Of a stretch of DNA of 10,439 nt, positions 1-10,439 are shown piece by piece. Origin of the DNA: a virus. Lineage: Duplodnaviria; Heunggongvirae; Uroviricota; Caudoviricetes. The notes below the pieces were generated by a model, which saw nothing but the letters and a program-made list of their open reading frames with translations, was not told the origin of the DNA and ran no database searches. The stretch lies in the IMG/VR virus record IMGVR_UViG_2541047926_000009, positions 1 to 10,439 of that record. One strand, 5' to 3'. The translations under genes were made by a program, and so were the position numbers. How positions within the stretch are numbered: position 1 is the first letter of the stretch; each line of letters opens with the position of its first letter.

Positions 1-678
1 TTAATCGTACGAGTCGAGTATGTTCTGAAACGCCCAGCCATCCTCCTTAGGAACACAAGACAGAATCGAATGAATTAGATCCCCTGCGGAAAGAAGTAAC
101 CCTTCTTGCCCTTCAAGAAAATAACGCCATTTAGGTCCATGAAACAGATTGTTCCGTAACCGGAAACAAACGAACAAGCACACTGCAAGCTGAGTCTCAG
201 GCTCGGTTGTCATAGCTTGCATGGCTGAAAAACAGTCATCTCTCGCCTTTTGAGAGGTGTGGTGTAATTCCCCGCATAGGCTTTCAAACTTGCTTTTATC
301 ATTTACATAGCGTTCTGAAAAAAAATCGTATGTACACTTGAGAACCCCCAGATCCACAACCTCCATTTGCAAAAGACGATTGGCATATTTCGCACTTTTG
401 CCTTGCCCCCCAGCGCAATTAAGAAGTAGAGACTCGAAGAAAGAGAAGTACAAAAAATAACGATTAACGGCGGTAAGGATAGATGGGGTAATCCTGCCTT
501 CTGCATTAATCAACTCGTCAAATTCTGATGAAAAATCCAACTGTTCATCCTTTTCCATTATATTCGGCCATTTATTGATATTGCACATCAGTCGCTCTTG
601 GCAATGACAGGTTTGCTCTCGGTAATGTCTCAAACGCCCCAAAAAGTAGTCTCGCAAATGCTCTAGTTGCTCGCGCAT
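1..678 (-). CDS. Hypothetical accessory (moron) protein, 225 aa; contains a HEPN-like Rx4H motif (FRLRNNLFHG); candidate abortive-infection/defence protein
   Basis: Complete ORF on - strand (ATG at 676-678, TAA at 1-3). Visibly AT-rich relative to the lambda-like core genes. Preceded upstream by a - strand intrinsic terminator (803..830), so it is probably its own transcription unit. Only a weak GAAG RBS. No recognised family beyond the short motif. Confidence 0.5.
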   Translation of the reverse strand: MREQLEHLRDYFLGRLRHYREQTCHCQERLMCNINKWPNIMEKDEQLDFSSEFDELINAEGRITPSILTAVNRYFLYFSFFESLLLNCAGGQGKSAKYANRLLQMEVVDLGVLKCTYDFFSERYVNDKSKFESLCGELHHTSQKARDDCFSAMQAMTTEPETQLAVCLFVCFRLRNNLFHGPKWRYFLEGQEGLLLSAGDLIHSILSCVPKEDGWAFQNILDSYD

Positions 679-802
679 AACAACTTCGGCGATAACCGGC
701 TATTCGGTCGTTCTTTATACGCTACGCTTGAAGGCGCAAGGCCAACGCTTACCTTGTCACGTTCCAATTGCGGTTTTGCTGCAATGTTCCTGTCAGTCTG
801 AC

Positions 803-830
803 ATAAAAAACCCCTCAATCATCTGAGGGG
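803..830 (-). terminator. Rho-independent terminator (- strand)
   Basis: Perfect 7-bp stem CCCCTCA (811-817) / TGAGGGG (824-830) with 6-nt loop; on the - strand it is followed by a U-run (complement of the A-run at 805-810). Lies just downstream of the stop of ORF 839..1039 (-). Confidence 0.55.
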
Positions 831-838
831 ATTAGACA

Positions 839-1039
839 TCATTGCTTCCAATACTTTTGAACCCGGATATTCATTGGCACACAAACATTTTCATAGATAG
901 GGCCGCTAACAGTCATGACTATATAAATACCATCAAGACCATCAATATTAAGCGAGAGTCTATCTCCGGCTCTAACCTCACGCTCTAGTTCAATATCTTC
1001 TACTCGTCCAGTATCATCAAAAGTCACTGAATACATCAT
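839..1039 (-). CDS. Hypothetical small protein, 66 aa
   Basis: ORF with ATG start and TGA stop immediately followed by the terminator at 803..830; weak RBS (GGAA); no recognisable domain. Confidence 0.35.
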   Translation of the reverse strand: MMYSVTFDDTGRVEDIELEREVRAGDRLSLNIDGLDGIYIVMTVSGPIYENVCVPMNIRVQKYWKQ

Positions 1040-1201
1040 TTCAAATTTCCATCTAAGTGCATGAGGTGTCTAACGAAAATACCATAAAGAGAATTTGATT
1101 ACATTGAACTTTTTCAGTGCTTACTTGGCTTATCTGAAGCCTTAATCATTGCCGCCCAGTGCGCTACCTGCTTGCATCCATTCAGCGCCTAATATGTAAA
1201 A

Positions 1202-1810
1202 CTATTGCAATCTAGCCTGACGCAAATGTGGCAATACCCTGCTCCACTTATTATCCTGCCAAGGCTGGAATTTTACATGTGCCGTTTTTCTGGCAAGGAT
1301 TTCGCGCGCCTTATGTAGTATCTGGGGATATTCTTGCTCGATAGAAGTAAAGCGACCGGCTTCGCGGTGTTCCGCAACCTGAAGAAGTGGAGTAACGTTC
1401 TGGCAGGCGGTTAACATCGTATCACTTGCTCGCCATAACCAAGCAAGTGTGCAAAGTTCGTTATCAGTGAATTGTTTTGTGATCGGGGATTGTTGAACTT
1501 CTCGATCGAGAATATCCAGAACCCAGCGGCGGAACTCTTTGGCTACAGGAGTTCGTGCAAACATGGCGATCAAATGGGCTCCGCGAAGGCTAAATACTCG
1601 AGACTCCTGCATTCCACGAGGGGTGGTCACTTTGACCACCCTTGTCATCATATCTGTAAATTCATCTGAGTGACGAGAGTAAATGCGCTGAACTGCTTTA
1701 TCGTCCGCATATTCCAGAGCTAAACCAACTTCAGTGGCAGTAAGCCAAATTCTGTTATTGTGGCAAATTGGGGTAAACGTCGTTTTGTGGAATGCTAATT
1801 GAGTAGTCAT
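1202..1810 (-). CDS. Bro-N / antirepressor-like (Roi-like) N-terminal domain protein, 202 aa
   Basis: ORF with a good RBS (GAGGTG about 6 nt upstream of ATG 1808-1810). The N-terminal ~100 aa follow the Bro-N/ANT pattern (W-L-x-A-x-E-V ... G-x-Q ... AK-E-F-x-x-W-V). Located in the nin-region position downstream of P. Domain call is from pattern recall only. Confidence 0.5.
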   Translation of the reverse strand: MTTQLAFHKTTFTPICHNNRIWLTATEVGLALEYADDKAVQRIYSRHSDEFTDMMTRVVKVTTPRGMQESRVFSLRGAHLIAMFARTPVAKEFRRWVLDILDREVQQSPITKQFTDNELCTLAWLWRASDTMLTACQNVTPLLQVAEHREAGRFTSIEQEYPQILHKAREILARKTAHVKFQPWQDNKWSRVLPHLRQARLQ

Positions 1811-1966
1811 AGTATCACCTCATCAGGTTAACCATCACCACCAACGACGCCAATCGACTGGTGGTGAACTGTGCAAGGTTGGCGTAACCGGCTACTCAAA
1901 CCCGGCGCTCCCGAAGAAGCCCTCACACAGCCCACCATAATTTGGGCGTAGCCGTGCTTAGCGCAT

Positions 1967-1987
1967 AAAAAAACCGCTTAACGCGGT
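1967..1987 (-). terminator. Putative tR2-like intrinsic terminator (- strand)
   Basis: Stem ACCGC (1973-1977) / GCGGT (1983-1987), 5-nt loop; on the - strand followed by a 7-nt U-run (complement of A-run 1967-1973). Sits downstream of the P operon and upstream of the Bro-N gene. Confidence 0.4.
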
Positions 1988-2476
1988 ATGCGTTGAGTAG
2001 TATTCCGGGACGCCAATCCCGTGTGCCGATTTTGCGGCAACGCACAGAATATAGCGCCGGATAAATAATGTCGTCAACCCTTGCAAATGGGGGGCGCGAT
2101 GATCACTACTACCACTATAACCGCTCCAACTGTTGCAACTACTTTAGGCCAAGACATCAAGATTTCCATATCACCTTTAGCTGCGAAACGAACAGAGGTT
2201 CCCATCTCTATACTGCCGAGGCCAAACACCGAATATAAAAAACCGCAGGTGCATCTCTGCATCTGTGAAGGGAGAAGAGAGTTTGGATTGTATGTGCGCA
2301 TAAACGTCCCCGTTTAGCGCAGAAGTCACCGGAGTTGTTCATATTCTGATGACATGATAATTTCCTATTGAATAGAAAAAATTAACACTACTCATTCTTA
2401 TGACTGGAAAAAGCAATCATGCTAATAATCATTGTTGTTCCAGTTCCAAATGCAGCGAAATAATCACTAATATTTT

Positions 2477-2506
2477 TTCTACCGGTTTCGACTTTGATGC
2501 TATATT
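2477..2506 (+). promoter_or_regulatory. Candidate sigma70 promoter for ORF 2560..2907
   Basis: -35 TTCTAC (2477-2482), 18-bp spacer, -10 TATATT (2501-2506) in a very AT-rich intergenic stretch about 55 bp upstream of the ATG. Confidence 0.3.
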
Positions 2507-2559
2507 CTGCTAACACCTAACTAACACTACGTTTCACACAGCAATTACATGGAAATAAC

Positions 2560-2907
2560 ATGACTATCAAAGCGACTGACATAGAGATTCTTCATCGTTA
2601 TGCTGAAGGGGTAATGGAACGTTCTAACCATCATGCAAAAAATGTTGGTGCAGCCGCTCTTACATTGCTAGGAGGTGTTATCTGGAAAGCCCTGCCCGGC
2701 TCAATCGAGATAAGAACGTATAACGGAAGTCTTGCAAATATGGTGTGGTGGCAAAGCGAAAGAACATTAAAAAATTATGCAATCTCATACAACCATAATT
2801 CATGTGAAATTGAAATGAGAGATGAATCAGTCAAAGGTGCTGTATTATTTAGCATTTCCAACGAAACCACTCCAGAAAAAATATTATCACAGCTTTCTGA
2901 GCTTTAA
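2560..2907 (+). CDS. Hypothetical moron protein, 115 aa, opposite strand to the flanking early-right operon
   Basis: Clean ORF with ATG at 2560 and TAA at 2905-2907; AT-rich; own candidate promoter upstream and a perfect hairpin (2913..2930) immediately after the stop; convergent with P. No recognised family. Confidence 0.5.
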   Translation: MTIKATDIEILHRYAEGVMERSNHHAKNVGAAALTLLGGVIWKALPGSIEIRTYNGSLANMVWWQSERTLKNYAISYNHNSCEIEMRDESVKGAVLFSISNETTPEKILSQLSEL

Positions 2908-2912
2908 TTAAA

Positions 2913-2930
2913 GGCGGTGCTAACACCGCC
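2913..2930. terminator. Hairpin between convergent genes (ORF 2560..2907 and P)
   Basis: Perfect 7-bp stem GGCGGTG (2913-2919) / CACCGCC (2924-2930) with 4-nt loop ctaa. No clean T-run on the + strand; a partial U-rich tract on the - strand (uuuaauu). Confidence 0.35.
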
Positions 2931-3111
2931 CATACCATTACTCCACATCTTACGCAACTTGATAATTATGCTCTATTAAATACCCACAATATTTCATCAA
3001 TGCATGGGTCAGCTATAAAATGTTTACCGTGGTAATTCCTGTTTTCGCAACATCTCAAAAGAACAATAAACACTGTATTTCTTCAAGTAACGAAGAATCT
3101 TTCTTTGCCCG

Positions 3112-3813
3112 TCATACACTTGCTCCTTTCAGCCCAAACTTAGCTTTGATTTCTGCGATCTTCGCCAGAGCCTGTGCACGATTTAGAGGTCTACCGCCCA
3201 TGACAGGAAGTTGTTTTACTGGTTCAGGTATCGCCTCACCACGGTTAATTCGCGCGGTCATACAGGTCAGCTCATCGGCAGCTTTACGCCGTAATTCCGC
3301 GTCAGTCAGCGCATTGGCCCGCATGTTCTGGTACAGGTTGGTAACCAACCAGTAGTGCGCGTTTGATTTCCATGGATAAGACTCTGCGTCCGGATACAGG
3401 CCACGCTTCCGGCAATACTCGTAAACCATATCAACCAGCTCGCTGACGTTTGGCAGCCCGGCGTTAACGGATGCTTCTTCCCGGCACCAGGCCACAAACT
3501 GCCCGGGTGATGGCAGGAATGGTCGATTCTGCCGACGGGCTACGCGCATTCCTGCGTTAACCTGTTCCATTGTGGTGATCCCGTTTTCCCGGAAAGCCAG
3601 CACCCACTGGCGGCGGATTTCGTTCAGTTCGTTCTGATCCCGGTTAGCCAGGCTCGCAGGGAAAGTTGCCAGTAACTGGCTGAACACACCGTTGATGATC
3701 TGCGCTACCTGCTGTACCTGCGGCTTTTCGTCGTACTGTTCCGGCATATTGTTGGCGATCCGGCGCATCTGCTCACGGTCAAAGTTAACCATCTGTGCGG
3801 CGATGTTTTTCAT
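3112..3813 (-). CDS. P: Replication protein P (DnaB helicase loader), lambda-type, 233 aa
   Basis: The 233-aa translation (MKNIAAQMVNFDREQMRRIANNMPEQYDEKPQVQQ ... KFGLKGASV) is near-identical to phage lambda P as recalled. The start ATG (3811-3813) overlaps the O stop (TGA 3810-3812) in an ATGA arrangement. Confidence 0.95.
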   Translation of the reverse strand: MKNIAAQMVNFDREQMRRIANNMPEQYDEKPQVQQVAQIINGVFSQLLATFPASLANRDQNELNEIRRQWVLAFRENGITTMEQVNAGMRVARRQNRPFLPSPGQFVAWCREEASVNAGLPNVSELVDMVYEYCRKRGLYPDAESYPWKSNAHYWLVTNLYQNMRANALTDAELRRKAADELTCMTARINRGEAIPEPVKQLPVMGGRPLNRAQALAKIAEIKAKFGLKGASV

Positions 3814-4739
3814 AAATCCACCCCGTAAATCCAGTCAGTGTTCGTCAGGTCGAGTTTTGGTTTGCCGGCTGTCACGCCAGCCTGTTGCTTGTTTCGGTTG
3901 ATTTCGAGCTGGGTCCACTTGTCGCGGAGTTTGGCCGGACTCAGCACGTTACCGGACCAGAAGTTGTCCTGGCATGCCCAGCGGAACAGCACGCACATGT
4001 CGCGGTGGTTATGTCCGTCACGTTCACGCATCAGGCGGATATCGTTAGCCCACCCTGCAAAATTCGGTTTTCTGGCTGATGGCGCGATGGTCTTCACCAT
4101 GTCAAACATCCACTCTGCGGCGGTCAGGTCTTCTGCTGTCCCCCACTTGCTGCCACTCTGAATTGCAGCATCTGGTTTCACCACAGGAAGATCGTTTTCT
4201 GGTTGGTCAGAGGATTCGCCAGAATTCTCGGACGAAAAAGGTTTTATATTGTCTTTTGTTAGTTTGTCTTTTGTGTTTACCTGATTCGGGTAAACGCCTT
4301 TACCTGATTTGGGTAAACTTTTCTTACCTGATTCAGGTAAATTTACCTCTTTCAGGTAAACTTTATTTTTCTTACCTGATTCGGGTAATGTTGACCATTC
4401 ACTGACCACATTATTAATACCGATATTCCGCCCGCTCTGAATCAAAATCCCACGCTTTACCAGAACACTTTTTGCAGCAGAACACTTGTGCGGCAATATC
4501 CCGGTCAATTCGGAAAGTTGCTCGTTGCTAACCCAATCCAGTTTTTTATTAAAGCCATATGTTTTGCGCATGACAGCCAGGAAGACCAGAAGCTGGTGCT
4601 GTGTTAATCCGGCCAGCATCACAGCTTCCAGCAACTCATTTGCAATGCGCGTATAACCATCATCGAGATCTGCCACGCGCGGCTCCTTTTGTGCCACATC
4701 CGGCACTGGAAAATTGAATATCTCAGCAGTGTTTGCCAT
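3810..4739 (-). CDS. O: Replication initiator O (lambdoid O protein) with divergent N-terminal iteron-binding domain and lambda-like C-terminal P-interaction domain
   Basis: C-terminus (ANDIRLMRERD ... KLRDKWTQLEINRNKQQAGVTAGKPKLDLTNTDWIYGVDL) closely matches lambda O; N-terminus (MANTAEIFNF ... VADLDDGYTRIANELLEA) is related but diverged. Start chosen at ATG 4737-4739 because GGGAGGAA lies 6 nt upstream; the ORF track's longer start at 4829 lacks this RBS. Iterons lie inside the gene. Confidence 0.9.
   Translation of the reverse strand: MANTAEIFNFPVPDVAQKEPRVADLDDGYTRIANELLEAVMLAGLTQHQLLVFLAVMRKTYGFNKKLDWVSNEQLSELTGILPHKCSAAKSVLVKRGILIQSGRNIGINNVVSEWSTLPESGKKNKVYLKEVNLPESGKKSLPKSGKGVYPNQVNTKDKLTKDNIKPFSSENSGESSDQPENDLPVVKPDAAIQSGSKWGTAEDLTAAEWMFDMVKTIAPSARKPNFAGWANDIRLMRERDGHNHRDMCVLFRWACQDNFWSGNVLSPAKLRDKWTQLEINRNKQQAGVTAGKPKLDLTNTDWIYGVDL
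4277..4388. repeat. Origin of replication: five 17-bp iterons (consensus TTACCTGATTCGGGTAA) with adjacent AT-rich tract
   Basis: Iterons at 4277-4293, 4300-4316, 4324-4340, 4343-4359 and 4372-4388, each with internal dyad symmetry (TTACC...GGTAA); they encode the LPESGKK repeats in O. An AT-rich tract (about 4237-4276) lies on the O-distal side, matching lambda ori architecture (iterons plus AT-rich region inside O). The iteron sequence differs from lambda. Confidence 0.75.
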
Positions 4740-4776
4740 AATTCCTCCCGCAATGAGTGTGTTACGATTTGCACCT

Positions 4777-4809
4777 GAAAGTCGGTTCTGTTCCCGCAGA
4801 CCGACTTTC
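4777..4809. other. Perfect 10-bp inverted repeat (hairpin) in the cII-O intergenic region
   Basis: GAAAGTCGGT (4777-4786) / ACCGACTTTC (4800-4809) with a 13-nt loop, between the cII-like stop (4826) and the O start (4739). No strong T-run on either side. Confidence 0.4.
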
Positions 4810-4825
4810 GCCATTTCTGAACCTG

Positions 4826-5371
4826 TCATATTGCCCCCAGCATGGTGGTCACCATCGCCATTAATGGACCAGCCAGATCCGGGTCCACACGAAACATCGA
4901 CACAATACCTTCACTCATTTCCTTCAGTTTCTGGTGGCGTGGTGCGTTGAGAATGACAGCCTGTTTTGCCTCACTGAGTTCCTTTTCCATTTCAGCCAAC
5001 CGAACCATGAAGCTATCCTGCTCAACCAGGTAACCGCGATATTCCAGCGGTAGTACCGCCAGAATTGCCGGGGTCAGTTCACGCACGTTATTTCGGTATT
5101 TTTCAGAATCGAATTTGTTATCGAGGAAGCGGAACAGCTTCTGGCGTGCACGGCTGACATCATCAGGGAAATCGATGGTGCCGCCGCCCTGCTCCCGATA
5201 CTCATTCACAATGAGTGTGGCAACGACATCCTGATTATCTACAGCCGACCAGGCGCGGACGGCATCACGGATTTTTTCGTGGCCTGGCACCTGTTTTGTT
5301 TGAGAACGATTTATCACCGCAGTCGGGCTAAATCCGCTAGTCTGTTGGTATGTAAGTGGTTGCATAGTCAT
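4826..5371 (-). CDS. cII-position lysogeny regulator (CII/YdaT-like), 181 aa
   Basis: ORF directly downstream of cro and upstream of O on the same strand, i.e. the cII position; RBS AAGG. Too long to be lambda-type CII. Family assignment is positional and tentative. Confidence 0.45.
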   Translation of the reverse strand: MTMQPLTYQQTSGFSPTAVINRSQTKQVPGHEKIRDAVRAWSAVDNQDVVATLIVNEYREQGGGTIDFPDDVSRARQKLFRFLDNKFDSEKYRNNVRELTPAILAVLPLEYRGYLVEQDSFMVRLAEMEKELSEAKQAVILNAPRHQKLKEMSEGIVSMFRVDPDLAGPLMAMVTTMLGAI

Positions 5372-5395
5372 TGCCTTATCAGTTAACGCCGCAGA

Positions 5396-5623
5396 TTAGG
5401 CGGCAGAATTACTCGCGTTAAACAATGGTGCGAGGTCGGGACGAATATCTGCTGGTTTAATCTTTCCACCAGTGGCTGAGACAATTTTCATTACATAGCG
5501 GGCATCAATTCCGCCACCGTGTAGCCAACGCCAAACAGTGGGTTGGGCTACACCGCATAGATCTGCCAGTCGTTTTTGACTACCTGTAATACTGATTGCG
5601 AGTTGAATGGTTTTATTTGTCAT
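5396..5623 (-). CDS. cro: Cro-like repressor (YdaS-type HTH), 75 aa
   Basis: Small HTH protein divergent from cI (MTNKTIQLAISITGSQKRLADLCGVAQPTVWRWL...). ATG at 5621-5623 with AGGAA 6 nt upstream; the track start at 5629 is a TTG. Shares the GVAQPT(I/V)WR recognition-helix motif with the cI N-terminus, consistent with binding the same operators. Confidence 0.75.
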   Translation of the reverse strand: MTNKTIQLAISITGSQKRLADLCGVAQPTVWRWLHGGGIDARYVMKIVSATGGKIKPADIRPDLAPLFNASNSAA

Positions 5624-5654
5624 TATCAATTCCTATTGGTATTGAAATGAATGA

Positions 5655-5684
5655 ATAATAGCAATGCGTATTAACCAAAATCAA
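5655..5684 (-). promoter_or_regulatory. pR-like promoter for cro
   Basis: On the - strand: -35 TTGATT (complement of 5679-5684), 18-bp spacer, -10 TATTAT (complement of 5655-5660); about 30 bp upstream of the cro ATG. Confidence 0.5.
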
Positions 5685-5722
5685 TAGCAAAACGTGTTTT
5701 GACCATCAATACGCAAGCGTAT
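5658..5722. promoter_or_regulatory. oR-like operator cluster: three 14-bp sites at 25-26 bp spacing
   Basis: ATAGCAATGCGTAT (5658-5671), ATAGCAAAACGTGT (5684-5697) and ATACGCAAGCGTAT (5709-5722, near-palindrome ATACGC/GCGTAT). They overlap the pR -10, the region between the two -35 elements, and the pRM -10 respectively, mirroring lambda OR1-OR2-OR3. Confidence 0.5.
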
Positions 5723-5725
5723 AAA
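5699..5725 (+). promoter_or_regulatory. pRM-like promoter for cI (leaderless or near-leaderless transcript)
   Basis: -35 TTGACC (5699-5704), -10 TATAAA (5720-5725). The cI ATG (5735) is only about 10 bp after the -10 and has no Shine-Dalgarno, as for lambda cI transcribed from pRM. Confidence 0.45.
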
Positions 5726-5734
5726 TTAAAACTT

Positions 5735-6427
5735 ATGAAAAAAGAAACTCTTGCTGATCGCTTAAACCTAGCGATGGAACAATCTGGAATGTCTCAAGGC
5801 GCTCTTGCAAAGGCGTCTGGCGTAGCTCAACCCACAATCTGGAGACTGACAAGCGGCAACGCGCGCGGCTCAACAAAAATTGTTGAAATAGCTAATGCAT
5901 TGGGTGTTCGAACAGAATGGCTCTCATCAGGCATAGGCCCGATGAGAAATGACGGTCAACAATCAGGGAAGCCTGCTGTCAGCCATTCCAAATACTTCAA
6001 AATTGACGTTCTTGATATAGAAGTCAGTGCCGGGCCGGGTGTAATCAACCGTGAGTTTGTAGAAGTTCTACGCTCGGTTGAGTACTCGTTTGACGATGCT
6101 CGTCACATGTTCGATGGCAGGAAGGCGGAAAATATCCGCATCATTAACGTGCGTGGTGACAGCATGTCAGGAACGATCGAACCAGGTGATCTTTTGTTCG
6201 TTGATATCACTGTTAAATCTTTCGACGGTGATGGTATCTATGCGTTTCTGTACGACGACACAGCCCATGTAAAGCGCCTGCAAATGATGAAGGATAAGCT
6301 ACTGGTTATCTCTGATAACAAGAGCTACTCACCGTGGGACCCGATCGAGAAAGACGAGATGAACCGGGTGTTCATCTTCGGTAAGGTTATTGGGAGCATG
6401 CCGCAGACATACAGGAAGCATGGTTGA
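5735..6427 (+). CDS. cI: cI-like prophage repressor (N-terminal HTH, C-terminal LexA/S24 autopeptidase domain), 230 aa
   Basis: HTH region (GMSQGALAKASGVAQPTIWRL), candidate Ala-Gly autocleavage site (EVSAGPG), S24 catalytic Ser motif (RGDSMSG) and downstream Lys (AHVKRL). Divergent from cro across the operator region. Start set at ATG 5735; the track start at 5699 is a TTG with no RBS. Not lambda, 434 or P22 immunity by recall. Confidence 0.85.
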   Translation: MKKETLADRLNLAMEQSGMSQGALAKASGVAQPTIWRLTSGNARGSTKIVEIANALGVRTEWLSSGIGPMRNDGQQSGKPAVSHSKYFKIDVLDIEVSAGPGVINREFVEVLRSVEYSFDDARHMFDGRKAENIRIINVRGDSMSGTIEPGDLLFVDITVKSFDGDGIYAFLYDDTAHVKRLQMMKDKLLVISDNKSYSPWDPIEKDEMNRVFIFGKVIGSMPQTYRKHG

Positions 6428-6542
6428 TTTAATGCTCATATTTTAGCCTTAGAAGGCCATTACAGACGAGTTAAATCTCAGCCCTTTAATTTATTAATAT
6501 ATTGAATTTTATGTGTTTTTTATGATTGCATTTTATGCCCTG

Positions 6543-6571
6543 TTGATATCGCCTCCGTGTGAGTGCATAAT
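6543..6571 (+). promoter_or_regulatory. Strong candidate sigma70 promoter for the rex-position cargo locus
   Basis: -35 TTGATA (6543-6548), 17-bp spacer, -10 CATAAT (6566-6571), in the AT-rich cI-distal intergenic region and about 30 bp upstream of ATG 6604. Confidence 0.5.
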
Positions 6572-6603
6572 TTAACCAAGGCATATTTTCAAGAGATTTC
6601 GTC

Positions 6604-6783
6604 ATGATTCGCAAATTATTAAAAATTATTGAATCTAAACCCCCTAGGGCCACTGATGCAGAGGTTCAGGAAGTTATTGACGAAATAAAGAAAAAACAAA
6701 ATGAAATTGCCGAAAAGAAGGAAGAGATAAAGAATGACCGTATCCGCGGCGCAAGAATCACAAACCACCGATTCATTGTATGA
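6604..6783 (+). CDS. Possible small Lys/Glu-rich protein, 59 aa, overlapping the start of the 283-aa ORF
   Basis: ATG 6604 to TGA 6781-6783 (MIRKLLKIIESKPPRATDAEVQEVIDEIKKKQNEIAEKKEEIKNDRIRGARITNHRFIV); not in the supplied track (below its size cutoff). Weak RBS (AAGAGA). Overlaps the downstream ORF by 50 bp in another frame. Could be spurious in AT-rich DNA. Confidence 0.25.
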   Translation: MIRKLLKIIESKPPRATDAEVQEVIDEIKKKQNEIAEKKEEIKNDRIRGARITNHRFIV

Positions 6784-7585
6784 TTTTCTATATGTTGATA
6801 ACAAGCGGGCATCATCGCTCTTGGCACAGATGCATGGGCCTGGTGTAATAACATCTATCAGACAGGTAACAGCTGAAGTTGACAAATCAGTAAGTGATGC
6901 CGGCTTTGACATTAAAATCATTAAGTCAAAACTTGGTGTTGAGGAAACTATCAATTACACCCATGAAAAAAGCTATGATGCTTCATGGACGCTTCCTATT
7001 AACCTCTTAGATAAACTTTCTGAAAATGATCTAATAAAAACAGAACTTAATGGTGAAAGACTTGGGAGTACTGTTTTATCTAAAGGCCATGTTCGTATTT
7101 TTGATATTTCCATGTTTCAAAAAAGCGTCCCGTTTGTAGCAAAAATGCTAAAGGCAGAACGCTCCAAGCTACCGCCAAAAGCAAAAAAAACGAATGATAG
7201 TATTGACGAAATCCCCGTCTCGCCCGGTGTCACTTTTGGCATGATGAAAGAAGTACTTAATATTGTCCCGAACACATTGCAGGTTGATTTTATTAATGAT
7301 TTTGGTCAAACCATTTGGATGACTATTAATCGTGATTACCTCACCATTAATCCAGACGATATGGTTCTAAAATATGGTGGGAGTATTCCAGGCGAATGGT
7401 ACGTACTTGGTTTTATCGATGCCCTTCCTGAATATGACCAAGAACTTTTCGATATGTCTGTGTTCCCGTCAAACCCTTTGAAAGATGGCATAACAGAAAT
7501 GCTTTCTGGGATAAAAGAATTAGCAGGCCGCAGTAGCACCGCATACGGAATGACTCCTCTTGTGATTTTCAGGAAAATTCAGTAA
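6734..7585 (+). CDS. Hypothetical protein, 283 aa, at the position occupied by rexA/rexB in lambda; candidate superinfection-exclusion/anti-phage defence protein
   Basis: Long ORF with RBS AAGGAAG about 10 nt upstream of ATG 6734 and TAA at 7583-7585; visibly AT-rich; own promoter upstream and a strong terminator right after. No Walker, nuclease or transmembrane motif recognised by eye. Function is inferred from genomic context only. Confidence 0.6.
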   Translation: MTVSAAQESQTTDSLYDFLYVDNKRASSLLAQMHGPGVITSIRQVTAEVDKSVSDAGFDIKIIKSKLGVEETINYTHEKSYDASWTLPINLLDKLSENDLIKTELNGERLGSTVLSKGHVRIFDISMFQKSVPFVAKMLKAERSKLPPKAKKTNDSIDEIPVSPGVTFGMMKEVLNIVPNTLQVDFINDFGQTIWMTINRDYLTINPDDMVLKYGGSIPGEWYVLGFIDALPEYDQELFDMSVFPSNPLKDGITEMLSGIKELAGRSSTAYGMTPLVIFRKIQ

Positions 7586-7592
7586 GTTCAGA

Positions 7593-7619
7593 CCCGGCCA
7601 CCGTGCTGGGTTTTCTTTT
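7593..7619 (+). terminator. Rho-independent terminator (tIMM-like) ending the cI-cargo transcription unit
   Basis: Stem CCCGGC (7593-7598) / GCTGGG (7605-7610) with one G-U pair, 6-nt loop, followed by TTTTCTTTT (7611-7619); 8 bp after the stop of the 283-aa ORF. Confidence 0.65.
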
Positions 7620-7745
7620 GCCCTCCCCTCATCACACACCGCTCAAAAAACCACCACATCCCTGCTTCAGTTATCGCTATGCGATGCAAGTCACAAAATT
7701 AATTCTTTTTGCTATCAAACATTTAATATCAAAACACATCAACCA

Positions 7746-7784
7746 ATAGCAATAAGTATTGATATCACCAATAGCAATAGTTAT
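7746..7784. promoter_or_regulatory. oL-like operator sites (two 14-bp sites, 25 bp apart)
   Basis: ATAGCAATAAGTAT (7746-7759) and ATAGCAATAGTTAT (7771-7784) share the ATAGCAA(T/A) half-site with the oR sites and overlap the -35 edge and the spacer/-10 of the pL candidate. Confidence 0.5.
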
Positions 7785-7787
7785 TAT
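7759..7787 (+). promoter_or_regulatory. pL-like early-left promoter
   Basis: -35 TTGATA (7759-7764), 17-bp spacer, -10 TATTAT (7782-7787); oriented toward gam-bet-exo and overlapped by the operator-like repeats. Confidence 0.55.
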
Positions 7788-7980
7788 CACCATATCGCAA
7801 CAACACAACGATACGGCAACCACCTGATTCACCGTTGCGATGACCGCTTAGATCCGCAGTTTGAATTTCAGCAGGCTTCGGGGAGTGCGAGGGGTGAAAC
7901 GGACGCGTGAACGTCGGTGTGACCAGCTGAAATTAACTCAACATTTCATACCTCAGTCGCTTCAACGAGGCGGTTTAGTT

Positions 7981-8271
7981 ATGACAACCGGCGGCCATCC
8001 ACCGCCTGAATACGCGCAGAAGTCTCTATATGTTCAGCAGCCCAGCTTACGGGCAGGAGTTTTTATGGTTCATCAACATTACGGAACACAGACCGTTAAT
8101 CGCGGTGCGGTCATGCCAGGAATGCTGGTCAAACACAAAGATAGTACCTGGACAGCATCAGCTAATTTACGCGGACGGCTTTATCTGCATCGCGGCATCG
8201 AGCGCACTTATACCCGTGACTTGCTCGTGGAAGTTTTTCTCGACGGACGCGGCAACGGCCTGAATCACTAA
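7981..8271 (+). CDS. Hypothetical protein (96 aa from ATG 7981; alternative start ATG 8065 gives 68 aa) occupying the N-to-kil interval
   Basis: ORF ending TAA 8269-8271. ATG 7981 has GAGG about 10 nt upstream; internal ATG 8065 has a stronger RBS (AGGAG, 5-nt spacer). The same frame is open from 7852 and encodes an arginine-rich stretch (RGVRGVKRTRERR) but with no ATG (only TTG/GTG). No similarity to lambda N, cIII or Kil recognised apart from the shared terminal His-stop. Confidence 0.4.
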
Positions 8272-8346
8272 CCCCCTTTCCTGTTTTCCTAATCAGCCTG
8301 GCATTTCGCGGGCGATATTTTCACAGCCATTTTCAGGAGTTCAGCC

Positions 8347-8643
8347 ATGAACGCTTATTACATTCAGGATCGTCTTGAGGCTCAGAGCTGGGCGCGTCAC
8401 TACCAGCAGATCGCCCGTGAAGAGAAAGAGGCAGAACTGGCAGACGACATGGAAAAAGGACTGCCCCAGCACCTGTTTGAATCGCTATGCATCGATCATT
8501 TGCAACGCCACGGGGTCAGCAAAAAAGCCATTACCCGTGCGTTCGATGACGATGTTGAGTTTCAGGAGCGCATGGCAGAACACATCCGGTACATGGTTGA
8601 AACCATTGCTCACCACCAGGTTGATATTGATTCAGAGGTATAA
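8347..8643 (+). CDS. gam: Gam (RecBCD inhibitor), short GamS-type form, 98 aa
   Basis: Translation ([56 protein letters not shown] ... [10 protein letters not shown]) is near-identical to the C-terminal 98 aa of lambda Gam. AGGAG lies 8 nt upstream of the ATG. The in-frame upstream region has a stop at 8290-8292 and no ATG. Confidence 0.9.
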
Positions 8644-8648
8644 AACGG

Positions 8649-9434
8649 ATGAGTACAGCACTCGCAACGCTGGCAGGGAAGCTGGCTGAACGTGTCGGCA
8701 TGGATTCTGTCGACCCACAGGAACTGATCACCACTCTTCGCCAGACGGCATTTAAAGGTGATGCCAGCGATGCGCAGTTCATCGCATTGTTGATCGTCGC
8801 CAACCAGTACGGCCTTAATCCGTGGACGAAAGAAATTTACGCCTTCCCTGACAAGCAGAACGGCATCGTTCCGGTGGTGGGCGTTGATGGCTGGTCCCGC
8901 ATCATCAATGAAAACCAGCAGTTTGATGGCATGGACTTTGAGCAGGACAATGAATCCTGTACATGCCGGATTTACCGCAAGGACCGTAATCATCCGATCT
9001 GCGTTACCGAATGGATGGATGAATGCAGCCGCGAACCATTCAAAACCCGCGAAGGCAGAGAAATCACGGGGCCGTGGCAGTCGCATCCCAAACGGATGTT
9101 ACGGCATAAAGCCATGATTCAGTGTGCCCGTCTGGCCTTCGGATTTGCTGGTATCTATGACAAGGATGAAGCCGAGCGCATTGTCGAAAATACTGCATAC
9201 ACTGCAGAACGTCAGCCAGAACGCGACATCACTCCGGTTAACGATGAAACCATGCAGGAGATTAACACTCTGCTGATCGCCCTGGATAAAACATGGGATG
9301 ACGACTTATTGCCGCTCTGTTCCCAGATATTTCGCCGCGACATTCGCGCATCGTCAGAACTGACACAGGCCGAAGCAGTGAAAGCTCTTGGATTCCTGAA
9401 ACAGAAAGCCACTGAGCAGAAGGTGGCAGCATGA
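8649..9434 (+). CDS. bet: Bet (Red-beta single-strand annealing recombinase), 261 aa
   Basis: Translation ([59 protein letters not shown] ...) is near-identical to lambda Bet. Its stop overlaps the exo start (ATGA at 9431-9434). Confidence 0.95.
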
Positions 9435-10111
9435 CACCGGACATTATCCTGCAGCGTACCGGGATCGACGTGAGAGCTGTCGAACAGGGGGATGATGCAT
9501 GGCACAAATTACGGCTCGGCGTCATCACCGCTTCAGAAGTTCACAACGTGATAGCAAAGCCCCGCTCAGGAAAGAAGTGGCCTGACATGAAAATGTCCTA
9601 CTTCCACACCCTGCTGGCTGAGGTTTGCACCGGTGTAGCTCCGGAAGTTAATGCTAAGGCGCTGGCCTGGGGAAAACAGTACGAGAACGACGCCAGAACC
9701 CTGTTTGAATTCACTTCCGGCGTGAATGTTACTGAATCCCCGATCATCTATCGCGACGAAAGTATGCGCACCGCCTGCTCTCCCGATGGTTTATGCAGTG
9801 ACGGCAACGGCCTTGAACTGAAATGCCCGTTTACCTCCCGGGATTTCATGAAGTTCCGGCTCGGTGGTTTCGAGGCCATAAAATCGGCTTACATGGCCCA
9901 GGTGCAGTACAGCATGTGGGTGACGCGAAAAGATGCCTGGTACTTTGCCAACTATGACCCGCGTATGAAGCGTGAAGGCCTGCATTATGTCGTGGTTGAG
10001 CGGGATGAAAAGTACATAGCGAGTTTTGACGAGATGGTGCCGGAGTTCATCGAAAAAATGGACGAGGCACTGGCTGAAATTGGTTTTGTATTTGGGGAGC
10101 AATGGCGATGA
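9431..10111 (+). CDS. exo: Exo (Red-alpha 5'-3' dsDNA exonuclease), 226 aa
   Basis: Translation ([65 protein letters not shown] ...) is near-identical to lambda exonuclease with a few substitutions. Confidence 0.95.
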
Positions 10112-10290
10112 CGCATCCTCACGATAATATCCGGGTAGGCGCGATCACTTTCGTCTACTCCGTTACAAAGCGAGGCTGGGTATTTCCCGGCCTTTCTGTT
10201 ATCAGAAATCCACTGAAAGCACAGCGGCTGGCTGAGAAGATAAATAATAAACGGGAGGCGGTATGCACAAAGCATCTCCTGTTGAGTTAA
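10102..10290 (+). CDS. Lambda orf60a-like small protein
   Basis: ORF overlapping the exo 3' end ([62 protein letters not shown]); matches the small lambda ORF found distal to exo, as recalled. Function unknown. Confidence 0.55.
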
Positions 10291-10439
10291 GAACGAGTAT
10301 TGAGATGGCACATAGCCTTGCTCAAATTGGAGTCAGGTTTGTGCCAATACCAGTAGAAACAGACGAAGAATTTCATACGTTAGCCATTAGGCGCAACGTT
10401 ATTCACCATACTGCTACCCATTGCGCTGATGTTGGTTAA
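10263..10439 (+). CDS. Lambda orf63-like small protein, 58 aa, ending with TAA at the window edge
   Basis: ATG 10263 to TAA 10437-10439 ([58 protein letters not shown]); the N-terminal ~40 aa match lambda Orf63 as recalled, the C-terminus diverges. Not in the supplied track (below its size cutoff). Confidence 0.4.
   Translation: MHKASPVELRTSIEMAHSLAQIGVRFVPIPVETDEEFHTLAIRRNVIHHTATHCADVG

Follow-up and report, generated by a model that had tools for sequence, protein, structure and literature searches.

The 10,439 nucleotides (nt) of the IMG/VR virus record IMGVR_UViG_2541047926_000009 (positions 1 to 10,439, hereafter called the window) represent the immunity and early region of an Escherichia coli lambdoid prophage, which carries an exchangeable cargo cassette of ~1.16 kb (6429-7589, + strand) between its cI-like repressor gene and its oL/pL-like region. 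The cassette codes for a protein of 59 amino acids (aa) and, overlapping with it, for a 283-aa protein of the Pfam family DUF6414. As judged from the available sequences, it appears to represent a previously unreported type of DUF6414-family member, in which a small open reading frame (ORF) and the DUF6414 gene occur in an invariant architecture that is missed by the current defence catalogues. The reading we favour, at a probability of roughly one half, is that the cassette is a two-protein accessory module (moron) which would be expressed in the repressed prophage and protect the lysogen against other phages by exclusion or abortive infection. An earlier note, made from the bare sequence, had singled out the same locus as a candidate for an undescribed defence function, and all elements it named are indeed present where it had placed them. 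Its claim of novelty stands insofar as a PADLOC scan, which it had proposed, matched no known defence model to the cassette proteins, but has to be narrowed in that DUF6414 is the family of the DolA protein of the Dodola system; this membership relates the cassette to a known kind of defence, so that it is not wholly undescribed.

The DUF6414 protein

The gene for the 283-aa protein (6734-7585, + strand) starts 50 nt inside the small ORF. The earlier note had recognised no motif in its product, which is correct except for a match of residues 15-231 of 283 to positions 1-222 of the DUF6414 profile (PF19952), scoring 38.1 bits against a gathering cutoff of 25 (E 2e-09). Its relatives score 26-45 bits against the same profile, several of them across its full length. 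The protein also matches phrog_9699, and RefSeq calls an identical protein 'DUF6414 family protein'. The clade comprises 1374 representatives at 50% identity, the best 150 of which are all single-domain proteins of ~257-350 aa, and is conserved across phyla down to ~25% identity. The residues that are invariant in a broad alignment include D17, Y20 and D22 (in the motif S-L-Y-D-F-L-Y-x-D), Q32, G111, G118, P179, G215, D229, P275 and R280.

An AlphaFold model of the protein (42 sequences) reaches a predicted local distance difference test (pLDDT) score of 73.5 and a predicted template modelling (pTM) score of 0.68, with low confidence for residues 1-12 and 36-81, and predicts an OB-fold-like beta-barrel with a set of invariant acidic residues. 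The best structural matches of the model are the OB folds of RPA, Ten1 and MCM N-terminal domains, none of the Foldseek matches against the PDB and the BFVD viral structures being significant. Of the homology and structure searches suggested by the earlier note, the former therefore found the DUF6414 family, whereas the latter gave nothing significant. A sequence search of the PDB returned chance-level matches alone, neither NCBIfam nor PADLOC gave a match for the two ORFs or 50 relatives, and PADLOC, including its DolA model, did not match the window protein, 41 of its relatives or seven large phage and distant-bacterial proteins at E<=10. No match of the 283-aa protein to a structural, replication or already characterised exclusion protein, which the earlier note had named as evidence against its proposal, turned up in these searches.

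The small partner gene

The 59-aa ORF (6604-6783, + strand), which the earlier note had only proposed as possible, corresponds to the annotated protein WP_021567498.1 and matches phrog_29688 over 59 of 59 positions (E 7e-36). The ratio of nonsynonymous to synonymous substitution rates (dN/dS), computed over the 45 codons which do not overlap with the DUF6414 gene, is 0.10-0.44 in 14 of the 15 synonymously unsaturated enteric pairs, and 0.80 in the remaining one. Together with the constant presence of the ORF described below, these values indicate a real gene under purifying selection. Its product is basic, with an isoelectric point of 9.7 in the window and usually of 9-11.7 among the relatives, and is modelled by AlphaFold2 (pLDDT 76) as a short and one long helix (residues 2-10 and 18-58). 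The window protein ends in the motif G-A-R-x-T-x-H-R-F-x-x-stop, and the non-clostridial small proteins share the conserved ending G-[AS]-R-x(3-7)-[RK]-F-x-[LIV].

The two genes overlap by 50 nt. Their relation is fixed, because the small ORF terminates within the Y and D codons of the invariant DUF6414 motif S-L-Y-D-F-L-Y, so that the DUF6414 reading frame is always +1 with respect to it. At the very end of the small protein, the overlapping frame imposes a partial constraint on the sequence, to which the G-A-R motif and the helix are not subject. An ORF of 48-84 aa overlapping the start of the DUF6414 gene is found in all 51 assessable contigs among the 53 IMG/VR viral contigs with the family. 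It is also present in all enteric loci examined, in Serratia, Acinetobacter and Clostridial prophages and in the remotest matches obtained, and it was recovered in 36 genome loci from Alphaproteobacteria, Gammaproteobacteria, Myxococcota and Vicinamibacterales (Acidobacteria). In Bordetella phage vB_BaM-IFTN4 (OM293953.1; ~3340-3535 of locus L070), a small ORF ending in ...RGSRVTKHRFSL lies upstream of gene 51 and is unannotated in GenBank. The fixed overlap of the two genes suggests that they are translationally coupled and that their products form a stoichiometric partnership. A frameshift fusion of the small ORF with DUF6414 was also considered, but appears unnecessary, as a separate DUF6414 start is given by the gene calls and annotations of the examined loci.

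Boundaries and signals of the cassette

The cassette is delimited both by its composition and by homology breakpoints. Its description as AT-rich agrees with a G+C content of 0.35-0.40 over positions 6450-7500, as opposed to 0.46-0.53 in cI and the kil/gam/bet region on either side. Aligning the window to E. coli prophages with an identical or near-identical repressor but other cargo (including the loci L075-L077, see below) places the left breakpoint at 6428-6456, straight after the cI stop codon, and the right one at 7589-7592.

The near-consensus promoter reported by the earlier note is a sigma-70 promoter-like site on the + strand (TTGATA-17-CATAAT, 6543-6571) with 10 of 12 consensus matches, located ~32 nt upstream of the small-ORF ATG. 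Promoter-like sites are not enriched across the region (8 found, 6.1 expected from shuffles). The TTG of the -35 element, the 17-nt spacing and the -10 element CATAAT of this site recur at an unchanged distance from the small ORF in five of seven cassettes compared between enteric genera. As the neighbouring sequence has diverged, the pattern reads as a phylogenetic footprint. Since the stretch from cI to the promoter-like site showed no terminator-like hairpin, read-through from the repressor promoter is plausible as well. An Rfam scan of the cassette and its leader detected no known RNA.

The intrinsic terminator at 7590-7621 (+ strand), the equivalent of tIMM at the end of the immunity transcript, consists of a 9-bp stem and a 6-nt loop followed by the U-tract UUUUCUUUU (-13.1 kcal/mol, z = -2.0). 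While its presence agrees with the earlier note, its assignment to the cassette does not hold: homology with the prophages carrying other cargo resumes at 7589-7592, and the terminator lies in a flank common to 1602 E. coli genomes and to L075-L077, which makes it part of the conserved backbone.

Cargo exchange between repressor and pL

The left anchor of the slot is the cI-like repressor (5735-6427, + strand), which matches Peptidase_S24 (E 1.5e-18) and HTH_3 (E 1.5e-06) in Pfam and the transcriptional repressor family phrog_4 among the PHROGs (E 9e-70). It is annotated as WP_001295669.1 in the locus L001, where the RefSeq start is the ATG at 5735, while the mechanical ORF starts at the TTG at 5699. 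The right anchor is the oL/pL-like region (~7680-7800, + strand), identified by promoter scan and sequence inspection, which shows operator-like 'caatagcaa' repeats and a pL-like promoter (TTGATA-17-TATTAT, 7759-7787). It is followed by kil (phrog_294, E 3.9e-38), gam (Pfam match), bet and exo, with the annotation of L001 as further evidence. The resulting order of cro, cI, cargo, terminator, oL/pL and kil-gam-bet-exo puts the cassette in the position of rexA-rexB in phage lambda, in agreement with the placement proposed in the earlier note.

That note had further regarded this position as a hotspot for cargo and recommended a survey of related prophages for alternative contents, which were indeed found. 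At least four alternative contents occur beside an identical or near-identical repressor in E. coli prophages, unrelated cargo occupying the interval between the repressor stop codon and the immunity terminator and pL at equal breakpoints, and the flanks of those with unrelated cargo share 94-99% identity with the window. Where the repressor is the identical WP_001295669.1, the slot holds either PDC-M63A/B (DUF6932 plus a protein of 310 aa; L075, 1111-2513; PADLOC E 7e-43 and 2e-42) or a 337-aa unknown protein (L077, 1135-2148), and beside a near-identical repressor a 170-aa unknown protein (L076, 1320-1832). The 170-aa and 337-aa proteins have no Pfam or PADLOC match and are further defence candidates. 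The fourth content is a divergent allele of the cassette itself (L136, 2833-3832), with 52% identity in DUF6414 and 41% in the small protein, which is present in seven E. coli genomes and, in the one examined (13TMH22), again lies beside the identical WP_001295669.1. The occurrence of two alleles of only 52% identity beside identical repressors suggests a rapid turnover. Of 5426 complete E. coli genomes, only two contain the cassette at >=99% identity, compared to 1602 with the right flank, and nine contain the family as a whole, indicating a rare and patchy distribution. The interval from cI to N (or pL) is known from the literature as a mosaic hotspot, which contains rexAB in lambda and bstA in BTP1; with cargo swapped beside the same repressor, the argument from the slot is sound and now documented for this backbone.

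Distribution in phages and IS1595-family elements

Beyond E. coli, the pair directly follows repressor genes of types unrelated to each other, namely S24-type and short helix-turn-helix (HTH)-type repressors in lambda-like and Rac-like prophages of Klebsiella, Enterobacter, Salmonella and Citrobacter, a repressor with S24 and HTH domains in Bordetella phage IFTN4, and an HTH_3 gene in Clostridium phage HM T. Elsewhere, the Serratia and Moraxella copies adjoin tail-fibre or tail genes, that of Acinetobacter is placed between the genes for tape measure and baseplate, and those of Clostridial and sludge prophages lie near lysin or integrase genes; these tail-side and lysin- or integrase-side positions are classic moron sites.

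A second type of carrier is represented by insertion sequences (IS) of the IS1595 family. In 11 of 35 distant loci, a transposase gene of this family (Zn_ribbon_IS1595 and DDE_Tnp_IS1595 domains) lies directly upstream of the pair, its stop codon overlapping the start of the small ORF by 4 nt. Four of these distant homologues (L025 from Nitratireductor, 3845-5967; L039, 3854-5931; L049, 265-2296; L030, 147-2223) have transposase, small ORF and DUF6414 gene enclosed in elements of 2.05-2.13 kb, with terminal inverted repeats of 23-38 nt starting with GGGA(C/A)(C/T)TATATAC and flanked by perfect 8-bp target duplications (CTATTCAC, CTTTTAAT, AAACTTTT, ATTTGAAT). Because the inverted repeats and target duplications enclose all three genes, the pair is an integral passenger of the insertion sequence in these cases. 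Further right ends of such elements were noted at L033 5802-5814 and L054 1146-1158. The window contains no transposase and no sequence within two mismatches of the IS1595 repeats, and its cassette is swapped through recombination in the conserved flanks of the phage. A tblastn search of 72,556 plasmids showed the family to be essentially absent, with a single hit; the respective record, PLSDB CP125156.1 from Klebsiella pneumoniae, has a size of 5.37 Mb and is evidently a chromosome. Carriage by insertion sequences and phage positions outside the immunity region imply that the function of the pair is not tied to the rexAB position.

Relation to known systems

DUF6414 (PF19952) represents the DolA component of Dodola, and the DefensePredictor supplement lists it as 'Dodola~DolA PF19952', that is, only as the known DolA. 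Dodola, consisting of DolA and DolB (Millman et al., 2022), is an experimentally validated anti-phage system whose mechanism is unsolved and which protects broadly in Bacillus, Streptococcus and Lactococcus hosts. The cassette resembles Dodola in that its large protein belongs to the Pfam family of DolA and in forming a compact two-gene operon present as accessory DNA. However, the partner of DolA is DolB, a ClpB-like AAA+ ATPase, whereas that of the cassette protein is a basic helical protein of 48-84 aa overlapping the DUF6414 start; moreover, the cassette clade is not matched by the DolA model of PADLOC, and it is carried by prophages and IS1595-family elements. Note that this distinction is drawn from family models and gene neighbours: a search that started from the protein of Clostridium phage HM T as a bridge, and likewise a broad profile search, returned only members of the small-ORF clade and no canonical DolA. 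A DolB-like gene is absent from the window, from those loci of enterics, Serratia, Acinetobacter, Clostridia and phages that have gene tables, and from the conserved neighbours of 35 genome loci. A recurrent cluster of neighbours of 600-990 aa was evaluated as a DolB candidate and rejected, as it consists of unrelated ABC/UvrA housekeeping ATPases.

With RexA and RexB of lambda, the cassette shares the slot between cI and tIMM/pL, the number of two genes and the presumed expression in the lysogen. The RexB family consists of membrane-anchored ion channels. Unlike RexAB, the cassette codes for no membrane protein, and its gene sizes and overlap arrangement differ. As the earlier note had supposed for RexA, no Rex homologue was detected for either ORF in Pfam, PHROGs, NCBIfam or PADLOC, and only the position is common to both systems. 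BstA of the Salmonella prophage BTP1 shows a strong association with prophages and, in various genera, likewise comes immediately after prophage repressor genes of diverse types, but it is a single, unrelated protein which carries an anti-BstA DNA element within its gene, and neither Pfam nor PADLOC detected any similarity to it. PDC-M63 (DUF6932 plus partner) is found in other E. coli prophages in precisely the slot of the cassette, next to WP_001295669.1, yet its proteins are unrelated to those of the cassette, and it is itself a PADLOC candidate system only. The IS1595-family elements contain distant members of the pair as integral passengers, whereas the cassette of the window lacks a transposase and IS ends. 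The cassette is therefore neither RexAB nor BstA nor a canonical Dodola. A full-text literature search for the RefSeq accessions and PF19952 retrieved no paper; DUF6414 was named in one text, as DolA only, and no paper characterising the cassette pair was found.

Function of the gene pair

The observations described above are in line with an accessory module that is mobile, undergoes rapid exchange and is of benefit in the prophage state. Among its possible functions, defence has the best support because of the family-level homology to a validated defence protein, the repeated placement at lysogeny-expressed cargo sites across phyla, the occupation of the same slot by the defence candidate PDC-M63, and the divergence of alleles beside identical repressors. 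The patchy yet widespread occurrence of the family, the constant and selected small partner and the conserved promoter are also counted in its favour. We infer a scheme in which the conserved promoter of the cassette would drive its transcription in the lysogen, probably supplemented by read-through from that of the repressor, the transcript ending at the backbone terminator before oL/pL. Translational coupling would then yield the 59-aa and the DUF6414 protein in fixed proportion, and the two may interact: the DUF6414 protein would act as a sensor or effector engaging nucleic acid or a phage replication intermediate, and the small protein would serve as its obligate regulator or adaptor, in the role held by the ClpB-like ATPase DolB in canonical Dodola.

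Several points weigh against defence as the function of the cassette. The clade is known from sequence alone, and as PADLOC, DolA included, matches none of its 51 members tested, the relationship to DolA is established only at the level of the Pfam family (26-45 bits). Without a DolB-like ATPase nearby, the knowledge on Dodola may not transfer to the cassette. The pair is also translationally coupled to an IS1595-family transposase inside inverted repeats in 11 of the 35 distant loci, and a function serving the insertion sequence itself would explain this coupling equally well. Finally, guilt by location is suggestive only.

Two alternatives, both of which we regard as unlikely, need to be weighed. 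The pair may constitute an addiction module similar to toxin-antitoxin systems, in which the small protein neutralises a toxic DUF6414 protein and thereby stabilises the prophage or insertion sequence. The small upstream gene overlapping a larger downstream one, their co-inheritance without exception, the basic and helical nature of the small partner and the finding of the pair only on mobile elements (prophages and IS) would all be expected of such a module. However, Pfam, NCBIfam and PADLOC assign neither protein to a toxin or antitoxin family, the one predicted long helix of the small protein does not amount to a recognisable DNA-binding antitoxin fold, and the family is essentially absent from the plasmids searched, where addiction modules abound. 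Addiction and defence can also both hold for the same pair.

The other alternative, which seems comparably improbable, is a factor for the DNA transactions of the mobile element itself, consisting of an OB-fold nucleic-acid binder and a small cofactor that modulate transposition, recombination, replication or lysogenic stability. Such a role would account for the 4-nt overlap between transposase gene and small ORF, for the enclosure of the three genes within inverted repeats and target duplications, for the OB folds of RPA, Ten1 and MCM among the best structural matches, and for the vicinity of the phage copies to the repressor and the recombination region. It is less easily reconciled with the window and the other phage loci, which lack a transposase or IS ends, and with the varying positions in phages, as expected of cargo rather than of a core function. 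Moreover, sibling prophages with an identical repressor carry unrelated cargo instead, and the pair is rare within E. coli.

It is very improbable that the cassette represents a canonical Dodola whose DolB is encoded elsewhere in the genome: the DUF6414 family is common to both, but the clade members tested have no PADLOC match to DolA, no ClpB-like gene is present in the window, the loci with gene tables or the conserved neighbours of the 35 loci, and the two genes of the cassette move together as one unit between recombination breakpoints or IS ends. A non-functional remnant or chance ORFs in AT-rich filler, which the lack of promoter enrichment over shuffled sequences might suggest, are effectively refuted by the conservation of both ORFs across phyla to ~25% identity with invariant residues, together with the purifying selection on the small ORF and the intact pairs in 51 of 51 assessable viral contigs.

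Returning to defence, a more specific version can be put forward tentatively, and with less confidence than defence as such: the pair may represent an autonomous, AAA+-independent branch of DolA-type immunity with an obligate, translationally coupled, basic helical partner of ~60 residues, which has spread both as cargo of prophage immunity regions and as a passenger of IS1595-family elements.

Other features of the prophage region

Over the cassette, the window shows 99.9% identity to strain TUM9868, whose prophage adjoins tRNA-Thr/proA. Upstream of the repressor, the Pfam and PHROG scans identified on the minus strand the replication genes P (3112-3813) and O (3810-4829), a gene for a YdaT-domain protein (4826-5371) and one for a YdaS/cro-like HTH protein (5396-5629). 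Between the pL-like promoter and kil (8065-8271), no N-like ORF is annotated or evident in 7800-8064, and the Rfam scan of this interval revealed no known RNA; a mechanical 136-aa ORF (7861-8271) matches Kil alone, in its last 77 residues.

An antirepressor gene with Bro-N and P22_AR_C domains (1202-1810, minus strand) is directly preceded by a set of Rfam matches on the same strand (1857-1942, 1967-2039 and 2002-2054), namely C4 antisense RNA (72.7 bits), isrK (60.7 bits) and an a1/b1 target element, which at 40.6 bits is just below its gathering threshold of 46.7. This region looks like an antisense-controlled antirepressor module of the P1/P7 type within a lambdoid prophage. Between it and the replication genes, a 115-aa ORF (2560-2907, + strand) lies on the strand opposite to its neighbours in an AT-rich patch (G+C content 0.35-0.40) and matches the integron-cassette protein family VCH_CASS14 (E 5.7e-20); it is probably a further moron, and TUM9868 contains other genes at this position, including one for a 472-aa hypothetical protein. 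The 225-aa ORF at the edge of the window (1-678, minus strand) has a sub-threshold match of 22 residues to DNA_pol3_theta as its sole match.

Implications

The clade described here has the DolA fold without a ClpB-like ATPase and always with one tiny partner, in a unit of 1.1 kb. The cassette thus offers a minimal and genetically tractable entry point to DolA in E. coli K-12 with lambdoid phages, and the hotspot known from rexAB and bstA gains a defined type of cargo. The module is carried by ~1,400 clusters at 50% identity and is missed by the present defence-finder tools. If the proposed immunity branch is real, it could reveal the role of the DolA fold as an OB-like nucleic-acid sensor or effector, and it would mean that an anti-phage module can travel within an ordinary insertion sequence. 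The link to IS1595 raises the question whether immunity genes are spread by insertion sequences, or whether the pair serves more generally to maintain mobile elements.

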